From the IMG/VR virus record IMGVR_UViG_3300025735_000005: DNA of 64,000 nucleotides; one strand, written 5' to 3'. Below are positions 13,951 to 53,710 of the stretch, piece after piece; the first letter of the stretch is position 1; every line of letters begins with the position of its first letter. The position numbers and the translations under genes are program-made. The notes beneath the pieces were generated by a model. It did no database searches, was not told the origin of the DNA, and saw nothing but the letters and a program-made list of their open reading frames with translations. Source of the DNA: a virus. Taxonomy: Duplodnaviria; Heunggongvirae; Uroviricota; Caudoviricetes.

Positions 13951-14026
13951 TGGCGGATCCGCTAGGGGTCGAACCTAGATTGCTGGATTTGGAGACCAGA
14001 GTCCTACCATTGGACGACGTACCCAA
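13951..14026 (-). tRNA. tRNA-Trp (anticodon CCA), 76 nt with encoded CCA end
   Basis: Minus-strand sequence GGGTACGTCGTCCAATGGTAGGACTCTGGTCTCCAAATCCAGCAATCTAGGTTCGACCCCTAGCGGATCCGCCA folds as cloverleaf: D-arm GTCC/AATGGTA/GGAC, anticodon loop CTCCAAA (U33, CCA, A37), T-arm CTAGG/TTCGACC/CCTAG; acceptor stem has one A.G mismatch and anticodon stem one T.T mismatch. Confidence 0.55.
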
Positions 14027-17784: not shown

Positions 17785-17892
17785 TCAATATTCCTCTGAG
17801 CACAGCTCACTACTTAAGCAACAGTACAACTGTCACTTGAATGGAATGGCGGAAAGGCCACGCTTGAGCACTGCTTTCTACGTGACCCTACC

Positions 17893-17910
17893 GGGTTAAT
17901 TTAACGGGCT
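17893..17910 (-). promoter_or_regulatory. conserved motif GGGTTAATTTAACGGGCT (copy 1 of 4); candidate phage-RNAP promoter for scaffold/capsid operon
   Basis: Same 16-nt core as at 32428, 53644, 53692; lies in intergenic gap between RNAP gene stop (17916) and scaffold start (17784). Confidence 0.5.
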
Positions 17911-32143: not shown

Positions 32144-32427
32144 TATTTCTCCTCTCGGACACTAAGGCAGCTGCAAAATATCAAGCTGTGCCTGTGTGAC
32201 CCATCATTAAGCTAACGGTTTCGTGATTATCCCTTTGCACACCTATCTTGTACGCTGCCAGAAAACGTTTGTAAATCAACGCTCTCGACGCCCGGCTAAA
32301 GGTACACAGGAGGAACACTCCTATAGGGGTAAGGGTATAGGGTATAATATAGGGTCTATCATCTATCATCCTCTACCCTTATACTCCCAATCTTGTTACC
32401 TAACGGTAACGGAGGACGTAAATATCA

Positions 32428-32444
32428 TTAATTTAACGGGTTGA
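32428..32444 (-). promoter_or_regulatory. conserved motif TTAATTTAACGGGTTGA (copy 2 of 4); candidate phage-RNAP promoter for packaging/late genes
   Basis: Shares 13-nt core with the three other copies; sits 30 nt downstream (in transcription direction) of a strong terminator. Confidence 0.45.
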
Positions 32445-39197: not shown

Positions 39198-40559
39198 TTA
39201 GAAATCCTTTGCACGATTGCGGACTTCATCGAAAGTATGCTTAACAAGCAGTTCGCCATCTCGCCACACAGGCTGCATGAGATCAACAGCATGATGCGAG
39301 AGATGATCAGTGCGAATAGCACGATATTGACCGTCGTATTCGATAACAGATTGGCGGCCAGCCTTGCTTGCCTTTTGGATGCTGCCAGTAGGCGTCTTCT
39401 GAACATCCCGCCAGCCATCGCCGTAATTAACAGCATTCATCTTCATGGCAAAGCTGAGTGTATCGCGATCGACTTTCTGAAGAAGACCACCGCCCATGCC
39501 AAATACGATATTATCCAGCGAGAAGCCGGCATGAATGATATTGCGGATAAGTTCCTCAATAGAATCCTCATTCATACCATCGCCTTGAATAACACGTACG
39601 TGCGAGTCCAGAACACGGTATCCCTTACTGTTTACAGTACCACCAAAAGCTTCCCACAACTTGTGCATGATATCGATCGATACCGTCGTAGGGTTGCCGC
39701 TATCAGGCCGAACAACAAGAGTGCCATTGCGTTCAAGAATCTCTTCCTTGAGACTATAGCACCAAGCCTTACGTACGGCACGTTCCAGGTCATAGCTATC
39801 CGAAACGATCGATACAAGACCATCAGGAAAACTCTTGAGAATGTGATGATACGCATTGTATTCGCGTTCACGTCCCCAGCTAGTAATAGTGCTGTGCTCG
39901 GCCGCAGGGATATTGAAGCCGGGCATACCAGCCTTGTAATAGTGCTGCGCATGGAGAATGCCAGCGAGGGTATCCGTGCTGCTGAAATTTAGCAAATGCG
40001 CCATGCCACCCAGAGCAGCGCTTTCCCGGCTGCTGGCACCACGAGCACCCATATCGTGCAGTTTGAATTCGATCTGGCCGTCAGGGTCATCACTGCTGAT
40101 CAACAGACCGCGATAAATGATCTTACGGCATTTTGCCGACAGCGTAGCAACCGTAGAAGGATACCATGTTGTGCGCGTCAAATCCGTGTCGATGAAGTTA
40201 GGCAGCCACGGGAAGCGTGGATCTGTGTTGACAACCTCAAATAGCGGTGTACCACAAGGAACTGCAATCCCTTCAGGCAAGGCGCGGATTTCCAGTGGTA
40301 GATAGCCCAGATTTTCCAGATCACGAAAGCCCTTATCATTAAAAGGGATGCCGTGGGCCGCGAGCACATCTGCGCATTCTTCGATCATATCAAGGTCTGG
40401 CGCATCCATACTGTCCATCAACGTAGGTTGCAGACCAAAGAAGATCATGCGATGGCTGAAATTGTTGATGCGTGCCTCGCCGTAGACAGAAGCGTACTTC
40501 ATTTCCGGCGGATACTGCATAAAGTGCGAGTGCTTATAGCTATCAACATCAAAAATCAT
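39198..40559 (-). CDS. nadV: nicotinamide phosphoribosyltransferase (NAMPT/NadV)
   Basis: Start taken at internal ATG (MIFDVDSYKHSHFMQYPP, cf human NAMPT ATDSYKVTHYKQYPP); FGMGGGLLQKVDRDT matches NAMPT GSGGGLLQK block; length ~453 aa. Confidence 0.8.
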   Translation of the reverse strand: MIFDVDSYKHSHFMQYPPEMKYASVYGEARINNFSHRMIFFGLQPTLMDSMDAPDLDMIEECADVLAAHGIPFNDKGFRDLENLGYLPLEIRALPEGIAVPCGTPLFEVVNTDPRFPWLPNFIDTDLTRTTWYPSTVATLSAKCRKIIYRGLLISSDDPDGQIEFKLHDMGARGASSRESAALGGMAHLLNFSSTDTLAGILHAQHYYKAGMPGFNIPAAEHSTITSWGREREYNAYHHILKSFPDGLVSIVSDSYDLERAVRKAWCYSLKEEILERNGTLVVRPDSGNPTTVSIDIMHKLWEAFGGTVNSKGYRVLDSHVRVIQGDGMNEDSIEELIRNIIHAGFSLDNIVFGMGGGLLQKVDRDTLSFAMKMNAVNYGDGWRDVQKTPTGSIQKASKAGRQSVIEYDGQYRAIRTDHLSHHAVDLMQPVWRDGELLVKHTFDEVRNRAKDF

Positions 40560-40560
40560 T

Positions 40561-41544
40561 TCAAAACCCCTTGTAAAAAGCCATGTGGTAGTGGTCTTCA
40601 AAGTATTGTGTTGGATGAACTGCGTGCTCATGCATCCAGCCAGCCCAGGATGCATCATCCTTACCCTGAGGCGCTGGCATGTCTACGTTGTCAGGAATTT
40701 CTATGTAAGCGGCATGAGTGATGATACGCCCTCGCAAGCTGCGTTCAGGATCATCAAAGATATGCCAACCAACAATGTATTGCGGATCGATGAGAAGTCC
40801 TGTCTCTTCCTCGACTTCTCTAAGCATACCTCTTTCGATACGCTCGTCAGGTTCAAGAAATCCTCCTGGCGCTGCATATAGGTTTTTACCTACAGCACCG
40901 CCGCGCTTGATAAGAAGTCTTTTGTCACGCCAGCGGATAATACCATCAACTGTGACAAAAGGACCAGTCCCATATTTAAGGCGATCCTTATCTACACCTT
41001 CCTTATAAGACAAGAGCTCCTTGAATGTATCCGTCATCTTGAAATGCTCAAGGAACGTCAAGGTATTTGGTGTGATGTAGGGAGCAGGGATATGAGGCAG
41101 ACGCCGAAGGTACACCTCACGAACATCGCTGGCGGAAAAGGTGCCGTAACTACTGCTAATCTGAATGCTTTCCCACGATGGAAACATATTCAGATAGTAG
41201 CTGGATTTGTCTTTGCCGTAGCCGGTCAGATAGATTATATCTTCAGGCTTGGAGCAAGAGCTGATGAGATTTTCAACGTTTTGCAGCCAATCCGCGTCGC
41301 TGTACGGGTAGTCATCAAGCGGAAGAACCTCCAACCGACCCAGTGCGTGCTCATAAGCAAAGGCGTTACTGATCAGCGATCGACGTTCTTCATATGTGAA
41401 AGGGTTCTTCGGATCTCGGGCTTTATTTGCAGAGCCAACAAGCACAATCAGCCTATCAACCTTTGAAAGAGCTTCCGAAATGACATGCGCGTGACCGATA
41501 TGCATCGGCTGAAAGCGCCCGATAAAAACGCCTATTTTGCTCAT
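40561..41544 (-). CDS. natV: bifunctional NMN adenylyltransferase / Nudix ADP-ribose pyrophosphatase (NatV/NadM-Nudix)
   Basis: N-terminal GRFQPMHIGH ((H/T)xGH nucleotidyltransferase motif); C-terminal Nudix box GGFLEPDERIERGMLREVEEETG. Confidence 0.8.
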   Translation of the reverse strand: MSKIGVFIGRFQPMHIGHAHVISEALSKVDRLIVLVGSANKARDPKNPFTYEERRSLISNAFAYEHALGRLEVLPLDDYPYSDADWLQNVENLISSCSKPEDIIYLTGYGKDKSSYYLNMFPSWESIQISSSYGTFSASDVREVYLRRLPHIPAPYITPNTLTFLEHFKMTDTFKELLSYKEGVDKDRLKYGTGPFVTVDGIIRWRDKRLLIKRGGAVGKNLYAAPGGFLEPDERIERGMLREVEEETGLLIDPQYIVGWHIFDDPERSLRGRIITHAAYIEIPDNVDMPAPQGKDDASWAGWMHEHAVHPTQYFEDHYHMAFYKGF

Positions 41545-46012: not shown

Positions 46013-46831
46013 TCACTTATTTACAATAAGTGGCGTGCCCTGCTGAATAAACGTGCAGTTATTATCGCCGCAGACTTCTTTAAGTGTATCCAACTTCAGC
46101 TTTTCCATATATTGATCGCTGGTCAAACCAAGACCTTGCTGATATGCGCGATCAGCTGCCGCGCGCTTGGCTTCAGAGATCGCTCGCTGCTCTTCTGCAA
46201 GTACTTCCTGCTTCAATGTTTGTACCTTTTGCTGAGAAGCTGCAGTAGCAACACGCTGATCCTTAATGCTATCCGGCGGGTTAGCCTTACCAAGCGTAAA
46301 GCGAACCAAACGAACCGGGAACCGGTTAGCCTTCAAATACGCTTCAATCCGAGTGGATACGTTACTATCAATCTCAGCAGCTGCTGTAGTGGCGATCGCC
46401 GTCTCGTTCATACCATGCTTCTTGACTTCATCGCGAACATATGAGAGAACTTCACTGTAGATGTTATTCTCGTACCACTTTGGACCAAAACGCTTGACAA
46501 GATCAAGGGCGTCAGTGGTCTGGGTAACAAGCGTAGCGTCAAAATCAAGCGGTACGCCGTCAGAAGACATGAGATCATTGAATTCAATAGCATGCTGCTG
46601 TGGTTGCATATTCACAGCAACACCTTCCGTCGTTCTCCAGGTAAAACTGGTGCCTGGCCCTTTCAGCGTTTCTGAATAATAACCGCCGGAGCCAAACCAT
46701 GGCTTTGAAAGTAGTACGACTTCTTCGCCACGATCTGCGGTGACATAATGGGTACTCATACAACCAGTGACTAGGAGAAAGAAGGAGAGGACAGCGGCGG
46801 CGGCCAGCTTAACAATGATATTATTAGTCAT
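46013..46831 (-). CDS. lipoprotein with coiled-coil/SPFH-like C-terminal region
   Basis: Signal peptide with lipobox LLVTGC at N-terminus; C-terminal QQKVQTLKQEVLAEEQRAISEAKRAAADRA coiled coil. Confidence 0.4.
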   Translation of the reverse strand: MTNNIIVKLAAAAVLSFFLLVTGCMSTHYVTADRGEEVVLLSKPWFGSGGYYSETLKGPGTSFTWRTTEGVAVNMQPQQHAIEFNDLMSSDGVPLDFDATLVTQTTDALDLVKRFGPKWYENNIYSEVLSYVRDEVKKHGMNETAIATTAAAEIDSNVSTRIEAYLKANRFPVRLVRFTLGKANPPDSIKDQRVATAASQQKVQTLKQEVLAEEQRAISEAKRAAADRAYQQGLGLTSDQYMEKLKLDTLKEVCGDNNCTFIQQGTPLIVNK

Positions 46832-52010: not shown

Positions 52011-52691
52011 TCACCCTGGAAAAGAGGCACTGTTATTATGGTATTGCGACGAGTGCACAAAACCATTATCAGTATGGAAACCCCAATCTTTTTCTTTCTT
52101 GAAGGTTCCAAAAAGACTAACACAATCAGGAGATGTTTCTACAATAGCATGAACACTATCTGCTGAGCGAACAACAACATCGCCCACCTTTCGAATACGT
52201 GATGCGATTAGTTTATTTGTACCTGATTCATAGCAATGCTCACGGTAGTAACCGCGAACAACTAGTGTCATGTTTGCCCATGGATGACAATGAGGGTCGT
52301 CTTTATCACTACGATCATAACGATGTAGATACAGGTTTTCCAGTTCACTTGGAATAAAACCAAGGGTACCACCTAGAGTTTGCCACGCAGGGTCATCATA
52401 CACAGGTACAGCAGCTTTACGTGACAGCATCCAACGGCTAATATACGGTTCACTATGTCGCTTAATCAATTGATTAGGTTCACGTGATGCCATTACGTAT
52501 TCGCAACCCGCAGTGATAAGTTTCATCAATTCAGGAAGAATTGCGTTAGTAAACGATTGAAAGTCTTGCATTATTAGCCTTAACCATTTCTTTGATAGTT
52601 TCAACAGAACGCTTAAGTGGCGGCGGGAGGTCTTCGGGTGTGGGGTGCACGAAAGCAAGACGCACAGAAGGATTTTCTGCAAGAATTGCAT
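52011..52691 (-). CDS. hypothetical protein
   Basis: 226-aa ORF. Confidence 0.3.
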   Translation of the reverse strand: MQFLQKILLCVLLSCTPHPKTSRRHLSVLLKLSKKWLRLIMQDFQSFTNAILPELMKLITAGCEYVMASREPNQLIKRHSEPYISRWMLSRKAAVPVYDDPAWQTLGGTLGFIPSELENLYLHRYDRSDKDDPHCHPWANMTLVVRGYYREHCYESGTNKLIASRIRKVGDVVVRSADSVHAIVETSPDCVSLFGTFKKEKDWGFHTDNGFVHSSQYHNNSASFPG

Positions 52692-52827: not shown

Positions 52828-52858
52828 TTCACAAAATAAAACCTCCCCGAAGGGAGGT
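52828..52858 (-). terminator. rho-independent terminator (leftward): 7-bp stem ACCTCCC/CGAA/GGGAGGT followed by TTTTATTTTGTG
   Basis: Read directly: plus strand acaaaataaaacctccccgaagggaggt; sits just downstream of the 201-aa gene. Confidence 0.7.
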
Positions 52859-52986
52859 AACTGCATCAGGGCATGAATTTGGGGACCGGACAGACCTCGG
52901 CTTTCATCATTTAAGAGTTGTTAGCTACAACAACACCCCTGTTACAGTAGACAGTTTATTGACTTGTCTAGGTCTCACAAAGCCTC

Positions 52987-53592
52987 TTAGGCTTCGGCGC
53001 TCTCTGCTGCAGCAGCCTCACGGGCAGCCTTTTCAGCGGCCTGCTTAGCGCGGTATTCAGCTAGAGCATTGGTAGCATTCGGCGACACAGGGCGCGTGGG
53101 CTTCGCAGCCTTGTACGCTTCCGTAATCGCTTCACGGTTTTCGACGATATAAGCAGCGAGCTTTTCGTTCTCGCTCGCTTCCGTCAGAACGCGAACCATT
53201 TCAGCAGCCTTCGCAGCGTCGTCCATACGCTTCACAGCCGGCCAGCGGAAGCCTTCAAAGGCAACCACAAGGTTTTCAGCCATAAAAGGCATAGCCTTGG
53301 CAAAAGCCTTACCTTCAGGAGTTTCCAGGAATGCGGGAGCGGCTTCCACATCCTTTTCGATCTTCTTCAGTTCCGACTTGGTAACACGCTTGATGGTACC
53401 GACTTCGAAGGCACCTTCAACGGCTTCTTGGTTTTCCACAAGCCAATCGATAAGACGGTCAGCCTGTTCGCCCGTACCAACAGTGGCACGAAGGGCGTCT
53501 ACGATCTTGGGACGACGGACAAAGGCTTCAGCTTCAGCCTTGGTGTCGAAAAAGCGATCGCCAACCTTGAAAACCTGGGTGAGTTCGGTCAT
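52987..53592 (-). CDS. highly expressed Ala/Glu/Lys-rich 201-aa protein of unknown function (monocistronic unit)
   Basis: GC-rich codon usage like capsid/tail-tube genes; two internal similar segments (VENQEAVEGAFE / VENREAITEAYK); preceded by twin promoter motifs and followed by a terminator. Confidence 0.55.
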   Translation of the reverse strand: MTELTQVFKVGDRFFDTKAEAEAFVRRPKIVDALRATVGTGEQADRLIDWLVENQEAVEGAFEVGTIKRVTKSELKKIEKDVEAAPAFLETPEGKAFAKAMPFMAENLVVAFEGFRWPAVKRMDDAAKAAEMVRVLTEASENEKLAAYIVENREAITEAYKAAKPTRPVSPNATNALAEYRAKQAAEKAAREAAAAESAEA

Positions 53593-53643
53593 GTATAATT
53601 CCTTCTGTATAATGGCGTTCTGAAAAGGCTGAGTGCCCTTTCA

Positions 53644-53663
53644 GGGTTAATTTAACGGGTTGA
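53644..53663 (-). promoter_or_regulatory. conserved motif GGGTTAATTTAACGGGTTGA (copy 3 of 4)
   Basis: 52 nt upstream of the 201-aa gene ATG; flanked by CCCTTTCA. Confidence 0.5.
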
Positions 53664-53691
53664 TTATGCCCGGTCAACCGTCCCTTTTCAA

Positions 53692-53710
53692 GGGTTAATT
53701 TAACGGGTTA
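53692..53710 (-). promoter_or_regulatory. conserved motif GGGTTAATTTAACGGGTTA (copy 4 of 4), tandem with copy 3 (48 bp apart)
   Basis: Same core and same CCCTTTTCAA flank as copy 3. Confidence 0.5.

Follow-up and report, generated by a model that had tools for sequence, protein, structure and literature searches.

A self-contained, predicted high-expression cassette encodes an uncharacterised protein family in a clade of uncultured siphoviruses

Introduction

Why would a phage equip a gene that belongs to no annotated family with two promoters, its own terminator and the codon usage of its capsid gene, and what might the product do? The question is raised by a 201-amino acid (aa) open reading frame (ORF) in a 64,000-nucleotide stretch of viral DNA (IMG/VR record IMGVR_UViG_3300025735_000005; Caudoviricetes), which we refer to as the window. 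Proteins present at capsid-like levels usually do a central, stoichiometric job, and identifying this one would fill a gap in phage replication or host takeover. An earlier note on this DNA had described the ORF as part of a self-contained cassette whose product is made in very large amounts early in infection, and had proposed a single-stranded DNA-binding protein (SSB), a DNA mimic or anti-restriction protein, or an inhibitor of the host nucleoid or RNA polymerase (RNAP). Here we describe the cassette and its conservation, the promoter class to which it belongs, and the readings of its product, of which we tentatively favour an abundant DNA-associated factor of a T7-like replication module.

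Results and discussion

Organization and conservation of the cassette

All genes in the window lie on the minus strand. Upstream of the 201-aa ORF stand two exact copies of a 19-nt motif, AACCCGTTAAATTAACCCT, 48 bp apart from start to start, as the earlier note had reported, followed by a ribosome-binding site (RBS) close to the start codon (Table 1). A small hairpin accompanies each copy of the motif; the one at the upstream copy pairs the 3' end of the motif with a downstream GGG, which is a possible transcription start site (candidate +1). On the coding strand, 3' of the stop codon, a GC-rich hairpin with an immediate T-run has the form of an intrinsic terminator, and the next gene begins 13 nt past the T-run. 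This terminator had been placed immediately after the gene; the element itself is real, and 128 nt separate it from the stop codon. The untranslated regions (UTRs) of the cassette have no match in Rfam, and the folding of the 3' UTR is not significant (z -1.1). The cassette is a monocistronic, autonomous unit that runs from promoter to terminator.

Conservation of this arrangement was scored on 61 distinct IMG/VR homologues of the gene, counting motifs with up to 2 mismatches within 350 nt upstream. The motif is found in 50 of the 61, at a median distance of 87 nt from the start codon, and a hairpin with a T-run lies within 350 nt past the stop codon in 32/59 homologues, compared with 5/280 random control windows. 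Because it recurs in relatives, the arrangement is not a product of chance.

The promoter motif in the window and the clade

With up to 3 mismatches allowed, the motif has four matches in the 64-kb window against 0.02 expected: the twin copies, one copy before the scaffold-capsid operon and a degenerate one before a terS-like gene. At least 119 IMG/VR stretches contain its 15-mer core, CCGTTAAATTAACCC, and in 1.39 Mb of related loci the gene strand has 69 sites and the other strand 0. The first ORF downstream falls into four main clusters, namely scaffold (73 occurrences), gp2.5-like SSB (21), the 201-aa family (17) and terS-like (16). In the most abundant gene classes the motif stands 28-250 nt from the start codon, and a terminator often lies just before it. 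The full motif spans 17-19 bp and is asymmetric, and its inner 11-bp core, GTTAA-A-TTAAC, is palindromic.

A conserved, asymmetric and strand-specific motif that precedes the genes of a phage with its own single-subunit RNAP is what is expected of a promoter of the T7 type, and the comparison of these sequences shows it to be a conserved, strand-specific promoter of a large clade of uncultured siphoviruses with T7-like RNAPs. The motif is probably read by one of the T7-like RNAPs of the phage, and a phage-RNAP promoter is the simplest reading because the genome carries two T7-type RNAP genes. Its core, AATTAACCCT, coincides with the stretch from -17 to -8 of the T3 promoter, which is a lead only; a literature search on the promoter sequence returned nothing usable.

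The palindromic core would also suit an operator for a dimeric regulator, with transcription starting from sigma-70-like hexamers between the copies, and two such pairs, TTGAAA-17-CATAAT (10/12 matches) and TTGACC-17-TAAATT, do lie within the twin-motif region. We consider this very improbable. The complete motif lacks the symmetry of its core and never occurs on the non-coding strand, and its short distance from the start codons of the most abundant gene classes, frequently with a terminator just ahead of it, argues against an operator, as do the T7-like RNAPs that the phage itself encodes. The hexamers are not conserved in relatives, and their number in the 1.9-kb region is at chance level (5 against 2.1 +/- 1.5 expected).

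Part of the genome lies beyond the window, on a 79,040-bp ENA contig (L207) that matches the window without mismatch over 11,055 nt and runs past coordinate 64000. In this phage two perfect copies of the motif occur only before the 201-aa gene; the gp2.5-like SSB gene on L207 has a one-mismatch variant, CCGTTAACTTAACCC, at L207 6121. Twin copies 46-47 bp apart also precede homologues of the 201-aa gene in L125/L074 and L152, and twin promoters ~100-150 bp apart are the rule before scaffold and terS-like genes in many relatives (L006, L009, L018, and L003 at 13437/13569). Tandem promoters are therefore a habit of the clade and not unique to the 201-aa gene. In these relatives a C-rich tract (…GCGGTCCCCC…) typically comes after the first of the twin promoters.

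Pairing of the ACCC(T) end of the promoter with a GGG slightly further downstream is frequent and gives a 4-5-bp hairpin (loci L001-L204). Such a hairpin accompanies 6/14 and 14/52 promoters of the 201-aa family and 8/15 SSB promoters, compared with 5/79 other promoters and 5% of shuffled sequences. It may merely reflect a GGG start site, or it may mark a promoter subclass or stabilise the 5' end of the transcript.

The cassette resembles the class II/III units of the T7 group (such as genes 2.5 and 10 with T-phi) in several respects: an asymmetric promoter of ~17-19 bp is reused before SSB and capsid genes, the phage encodes RNA polymerases of family PF00940, the RBS is strong and the product abundant, and a stem-loop terminator with a T-run closes the unit. 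The setting differs, in that the phage is no podovirus but a siphovirus of 79 kb, a Mu-F head protein carries one of the RNAP copies as a fusion, and the downstream sequence and the spacing of the GGG vary, the start site being putative. In a phage that encodes an RNA polymerase of its own, such an architecture is ordinary. As a compact set of promoter, RBS and terminator for a new T7-like RNAP family, the cassette could serve as an orthogonal expression part.

Composition and predicted abundance

The 1-kb window that holds the gene has a GC content of 0.526, with neighbouring windows at 0.41-0.43 and the capsid window alone comparable (0.523). At 0.548, the 201-aa ORF is the most GC-rich of 86 candidate ORFs (mean 0.451, standard deviation (sd) 0.041). 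The excess is due partly to amino-acid composition (GC at first codon positions 0.673; 21% Ala) and partly to synonymous choice (GC at third positions 0.535, against a mean of 0.427). The codon-adaptation index (CAI), with the capsid gene as reference, is 0.722, which ranks second of 85 ORFs (mean 0.44, sd 0.10) behind the major tail protein (0.770). All 17 Lys codons are AAG, no Arg is encoded by AGR and A is the last base of only 5% of four-fold codons, a pattern that the capsid gene shares. The GC-rich codon usage that the earlier note had likened to the capsid and tail genes is thus statistically clear, and computing codon adaptation across the ORFs, as it had proposed, places the gene with the capsid and major tail genes.

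The bias extends through the family. The gene has the lowest effective number of codons (Nc) among ORFs of at least 150 aa in 33/58 loci and is among the lowest two in 43, and its GC content exceeds that of the locus in 57/58 loci, by 6.2 points on average. It is not confined to structural genes: the gp2.5-like SSB gene of the same phage has a CAI of 0.670 and uses AAG for 18/18 Lys residues. Because this non-structural gene shares both codon bias and promoter, the two features mark abundance and not a particular function or membership of the virion. The product is predicted to reach an abundance comparable to that of the SSB and the major structural proteins, and among the non-structural genes of the clade this one appears to have the strongest expression. 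The expectation that the protein is made in very large amounts early accordingly holds for its first part, where twin promoters, a good RBS, codon usage and terminator, conserved in the family, make up a high-expression build; early timing is unsupported and cannot be concluded, because the same promoter drives both the gp2.5-like SSB gene and the late scaffold/capsid operon.

Distribution of the family

Homologues number at least 197 in a 90%-clustered database, and an exhaustive hidden Markov model (HMM) search of 1.84 billion representatives returned 177 clusters at 50% identity (E <=0.001), where all of the matches listed (150 of 177 clusters) look like the 201-aa family and are ~180-260 aa long or fragments. 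Among 185,579 species genomes the family occurs once, on a 74-kb phage contig binned in a gammaproteobacterial metagenome-assembled genome. Across a wide clade its members are ~45% identical. The clade consists of uncultured phages of ~70-85 kb, is widespread and comprises hundreds of metagenomic contigs. The place of the gene is constant, 3' of the primase-helicase, ribonucleotide reductase (RNR) and ligase genes and 5' of the packaging genes, never in the structural module and more than 20 kb from the head/tail module in every genome examined. These comparisons show the 201-aa gene to be, as judged from the contigs sampled, a near-core gene of the clade.

When 50,697 GenBank phages were searched by megablast and tblastn, neither the locus nor the protein had a match, and sequence and profile searches of the PDB with the protein gave none either. 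Searches of Pfam, PHROGs and NCBIfam with the protein and 54 relatives yielded scattered, inconsistent sub-threshold matches only. The family is uncharacterised and belongs to no annotated family, and its predicted fold is unmatched. Of the N-terminal extensions present in a few members, that of P0309 is read-through from an HNH-AP2 homing endonuclease and those of P0295, P0316 and P0323 are low-complexity upstream sequence from mis-called starts; none is an informative fusion.

Structure and charge of the protein

The protein is rich in Ala (21%), Glu (13%) and Lys (8.5%) and carries a net charge of -5. An AlphaFold2 model built on a 54-sequence alignment is of high confidence (mean predicted local distance difference test (pLDDT) 92.8) and consists of a short beta-hairpin (residues 8-15) that leads into eleven helices, of which the final one is 30 residues long. 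The predicted fold is unlike any solved structure and contains no enzymatic motifs. Its two halves are homologous: residues 30-70 align with residues 132-168 in hhalign with a probability of 97.3% and E 2.6e-11, compared with E 0.53 for a reversed control, which shows that the protein is, by homology, built from a duplicated unit of ~40-60 aa. Conserved basic residues cluster in four loops, RRP (26-28), KRVTK (68-72), RWPxVKR (116-122) and KR (166-167).

The Ala/Glu/Lys-rich composition and the two related segments that had been noticed in the sequence are borne out by these analyses; the acidic Ala-rich tail is only mildly acidic and is not conserved. In the window protein it is short (…REAAAAESAEA), and across the family tails range from 9 to 94 aa and from -20 to +7 in net charge, with a median of +1. 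The median pI of the family is 5.5 and the median net charge -3, and 13% of members have a pI above 8. A subset carries long, strongly acidic C-terminal extensions (P0241, P0295, P0302, P0249), one of which ends …EDDDFDI and resembles a gp2.5 tail.

A possible relationship to YebG

Five family members carry the Joint Genome Institute (JGI) label 'dsDNA-binding SOS-regulon protein', its name for YebG/COG3141. In hhalign comparisons of the family with E. coli YebG and with YebG alignments a constant register of 52 columns recurs, at P values of 0.0009-0.03 and probabilities of 2-24%. The register pairs FDTKAEA with FTSKKEA, and LxxWLxENQExVE…G with LSLWLAEQKDVL…G, so that the family and YebG have in common the motifs F-[DT]-[ST]-K-x-E-A and L-x-x-W-L-x-E-x-x-[DE]-x-[VL]…G. 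An HMM of enterobacterial YebG scores at least 10 bits with 31/266 members (top 19.2 bits, E 1.2e-5) and with 0 reversed or shuffled controls, and both internal repeats align to YebG residues 50-87. PDB entry 3ERM, from Pseudomonas syringae, was confirmed as a structure of the YebG family. An AlphaFold2 model of E. coli YebG, itself of low confidence (pLDDT 59), has the order beta-beta-alpha-alpha-alpha, the same as the N-terminal domain of the phage protein. PF07130 was not among the matches listed for the 54 relatives (25 of 53 families), and the exhaustive HMM search gave no link to YebG among the matches listed.

From these alignments a relationship of the protein to YebG (PF07130/COG3141; SOS-inducible in E. 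coli) is plausible but unproven. The two are alike in the predicted beta-hairpin and three-helix order and in the two shared motifs. They differ in that the phage protein is twice as long, with the helical unit duplicated, a further helical insert in the middle and a long helix at the C-terminus, and stands under a phage promoter and not under LexA control.

What the protein might do

The reading that we put forward, as a possible one, is that the protein is an abundant DNA-associated factor (dsDNA-binding, architectural or replisome-accessory) of the T7-like replication module. A nucleic-acid role is suggested by the place of the gene in the genome, the expected dosage of its product, the conserved basic loops in their pseudo-dimeric arrangement, the hint from YebG and the acidic tails that some members carry. 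Transcription would start at the twin promoters, run through a short leader, which has a strong RBS, and the codon-optimised ORF, and stop at the UUCG-loop terminator; the protein would accumulate to capsid- or SSB-like levels once the phage RNAP is active and would act stoichiometrically on nucleic acid, beside the gp2.5-like SSB and the T7-like replisome. The pseudo-dimeric basic loops are putative contacts to the backbone, and the Ala-rich C-terminal helix or the variable tail may mediate interactions with other copies or with partners. Abundant dsDNA-binding accessory proteins are familiar from phages, as in phi29 p6, SPO1 TF1 and T4 MotB/DsbA, and p6 is itself net acidic. The likeness would be one of function: these proteins are small, non-structural, very abundant and encoded with replication or transcription genes. 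They have no similarity to the 201-aa protein in sequence or structure, and DNA binding by the latter is putative.

Several observations weigh against a DNA-associated role. The 17 conserved K/R columns are nearly matched by 12 conserved acidic ones and the protein is net acidic; the immediate small-ORF neighbours of the cassette differ between genomes; and recognition of the motif by a phage RNAP, like the timing of expression, is itself inferred. The YebG signal falls below every formal threshold, with hhalign probabilities of 13-24% in profile comparisons, PF07130 has no match to the protein at E <=1 and a Pseudomonas-only YebG profile gives no signal against the family. The biochemical role of YebG is not characterised in the literature found, so the link adds little mechanistic information. 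If the role proves to be that of a routine DNA-binding accessory protein, the finding is of ordinary interest. We think it improbable that the protein is the first of a new, highly abundant class of non-OB (oligonucleotide/oligosaccharide-binding), tandem-repeat (YebG-like) DNA-coating proteins with which siphoviruses that have a T7-like replisome would organise or shield their replicating genome; were this true, it would provide the first functional handle on YebG, an enigmatic SOS protein.

The main alternative, which we regard as doubtful, is a host-takeover or anti-defence protein that would act by protein-protein binding and titrate a host target present in abundance (a nucleoid protein, the RNA polymerase or a defence sensor, for example), by analogy with T7 gp5.5 or gp2; a high dosage would be needed to match the target. 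The very high predicted expression would fit, as would a mildly acidic helical repeat protein with conserved surface loops and a novel predicted fold without enzymatic motifs; the phage has other genes of counter-defence type (gp5.9-like; NAMPT with NMNAT/NUDIX), and the family is confined to contigs of lytic phages. Anti-defence genes are, however, usually patchy accessory genes, and this one is near-core at ~45% identity across a clade that presumably infects different hosts, sits among the replication genes and has a promoter of the same subclass as that of the SSB gene. No anti-defence family was matched in Pfam, PHROGs or NCBIfam, the matches of 2/54 members to AcrID1 (E 0.037) being noise. 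A DNA mimic or anti-restriction protein, another of the candidates of the earlier note, is unlikely, since the charge of the protein and the basic pI of part of the family are far from those of known mimics of the Ocr or ArdA type, to which no structural or sequence similarity was found. Codon usage that groups the gene with the capsid and major tail protein, and a promoter in common with the scaffold/capsid operon, could alternatively point to a virion or assembly protein made in structural amounts from outside the structural module, such as an internal DNA-associated head protein or an assembly chaperone. This is quite improbable: the gene lies among DNA-metabolism genes, far from the head/tail module in every genome examined, a clearly non-structural SSB has the same codon bias and promoter, and similarity to structural PHROGs is absent (a 'virion structural protein' PHROG matched 2/54 members at E 0.07, which is noise).

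That the protein is the SSB of the phage, the first candidate of the earlier note, is essentially excluded. Its place among replication genes, its high predicted expression, its mildly acidic Ala-rich C-terminus and the strongly acidic tails of some relatives are what such a protein would have, and a T7 gp2.5-type SSB is abundant and shares its promoter class, codon bias and module in this phage. The structure prediction that had been suggested as a check for an OB fold gave an all-helical model without a barrel, neither the protein nor its 54 relatives match gp2.5/SSB-type profiles in Pfam, PHROGs or NCBIfam, and the acidic tail is not conserved, whereas the clade gp2.5-like proteins all end in an acidic run and F/Y. 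The absence of an SSB from the window, which the earlier note had remarked on, is an edge artefact: 3 kb past coordinate 64000 the phage encodes a gp2.5-like SSB whose acidic tail has Phe as its last residue. Both genes occur together on at least 5 related contigs, and 7/11 of the clade SSBs match phrog_112.

The phage and its other genes

By gene content the phage is a siphovirus, with portal, scaffold, capsid, major tail protein and tape-measure genes. The window carries a T7-like DNA-metabolism block (5'-3' exonuclease, primase-helicase, RNR and ATP-dependent ligase), and past coordinate 64000 L207 also encodes, downstream of the SSB gene, a family-A DNA polymerase and a gp5.9-like gene. 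To judge by these assignments, they and the SSB complete with the window genes a T7-like replisome in a siphovirus. The closest relatives in GenBank are EBPR siphovirus 1 (capsid 55% identity) and the roseophages DSS3_VP1 and DSS3_PM1 (36-39%); the Naomiviridae paper on the latter, the nearest cultured relatives, contains no description of an RNAP, promoters or the 201-aa gene.

Table 1. Features of the cassette and of other loci in the phage. Coordinates are those of the window or, where marked, of ENA contig L207.
Feature	Position	Strand	Basis or remark
Promoter motif, upstream copy	53691-53709	-	Exact AACCCGTTAAATTAACCCT
Promoter motif, downstream copy	53643-53661	-	Exact AACCCGTTAAATTAACCCT, identical 19-mer; ATG 50 nt further
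Small hairpin CCCTT-GAA-AAGGG	53682-53694	-	3' end of upstream promoter copy and downstream GGG
Hairpin CCCT-GAA-AGGG after downstream promoter copy	53636-53646	-	Sequence reading
Sigma-70-like hexamer pairs	53649-53691	-	Consensus scan only; between and over the motifs
RBS GAAGGA	53600-53605	-	7 nt 5' of ATG; sequence reading
Coding sequence, 201 aa, 22.0 kDa, pI 5.16	52987-53592	-	Uncharacterised phage-only protein family
N-terminal domain, residues 1-70	53383-53592	-	Beta-hairpin and three helices (AlphaFold2 model)
Internal repeat copy 1, residues 30-70	53383-53505	-	hhalign, N half against C half
Internal repeat copy 2, residues 132-168	53089-53199	-	hhalign, N half against C half
3' UTR, 128 nt	52859-52986	-	Between stop codon and terminator
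Intrinsic terminator	52831-52858	-	7-bp stem ACCTCCC/GGGAGGT (5 GC pairs), TTCG loop, then TTTATTTTGT
Motif copy before scaffold-capsid operon	17892-17910	-	Exact 15-mer core, directly upstream; defines promoter class
Degenerate motif copy before terS-like gene	32424-32442	-	Scan with <=3 mismatches
Mu-F head protein and T7-like RNAP fusion, 1551 aa	17916-22571	-	PF04233 E 3e-16; PF00940 25.5 bits (cut-off 22); phrog_414 E 6e-16
Second, stand-alone T7-like RNAP gene ("early gene")	L207 2539-5486; 4.4-7.3 kb past 64000		514-aa and 230-aa ORFs split by 158-aa HNH ORF
gp2.5-like SSB, 187 aa	L207 6242-6805; 3 kb past 64000		Clade SSB profile, hmmsearch E 2.4e-76; tail …GEIF
Tape-measure protein, 3292 aa	2813-12691	-	N-terminal ~320 aa alone match tape-measure families
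NAMPT-like phosphoribosyltransferase; cytidylyltransferase-like (NMNAT)/NUDIX fusion	39198-40658; 40561-41544	-	NAD salvage pair
tRNA-Trp (CCA), single	13951-14024	-	Between major tail protein gene and tail-chaperone region
SPFH/Band-7 family protein; cupin-type 'cysteine dioxygenase' PHROG member	46013-46831; 52011-52691	-	Unusual auxiliary genes

The two RNAP genes differ in build. In the 1551-aa fusion a Mu-F/SPP1-gp7-type domain (aa 147-252) is followed by regions matching phrog_414 (aa 849-1077) and PF00940 (aa 1406-1489), and the fusion suggests that this RNAP is carried inside the capsid and leaves it together with the DNA. The proposed function would be like that of the N4 virion RNAP, with a different build, and the fusion is one candidate enzyme for reading the promoter motif. 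Its homologues in EBPR siphovirus 1 and DSS3_VP1/PM1 are annotated merely as minor head proteins. The HNH ORF within the second RNAP gene could be a homing-endonuclease or intron insertion, or the enzyme could be genuinely split.

The unusual length of the tape-measure protein implies that the tail is very long or that the protein has large domains other than the ruler; an N4-like reading of this 3292-aa ORF proved wrong. The listed ORFs of the NAD salvage pair share 98 nt, which makes it probable that one start has been called wrongly, and the pair resembles the phage NAD-reconstitution pathways that counter NAD-depleting defence. The cupin-type gene lies one small ORF downstream of the cassette.

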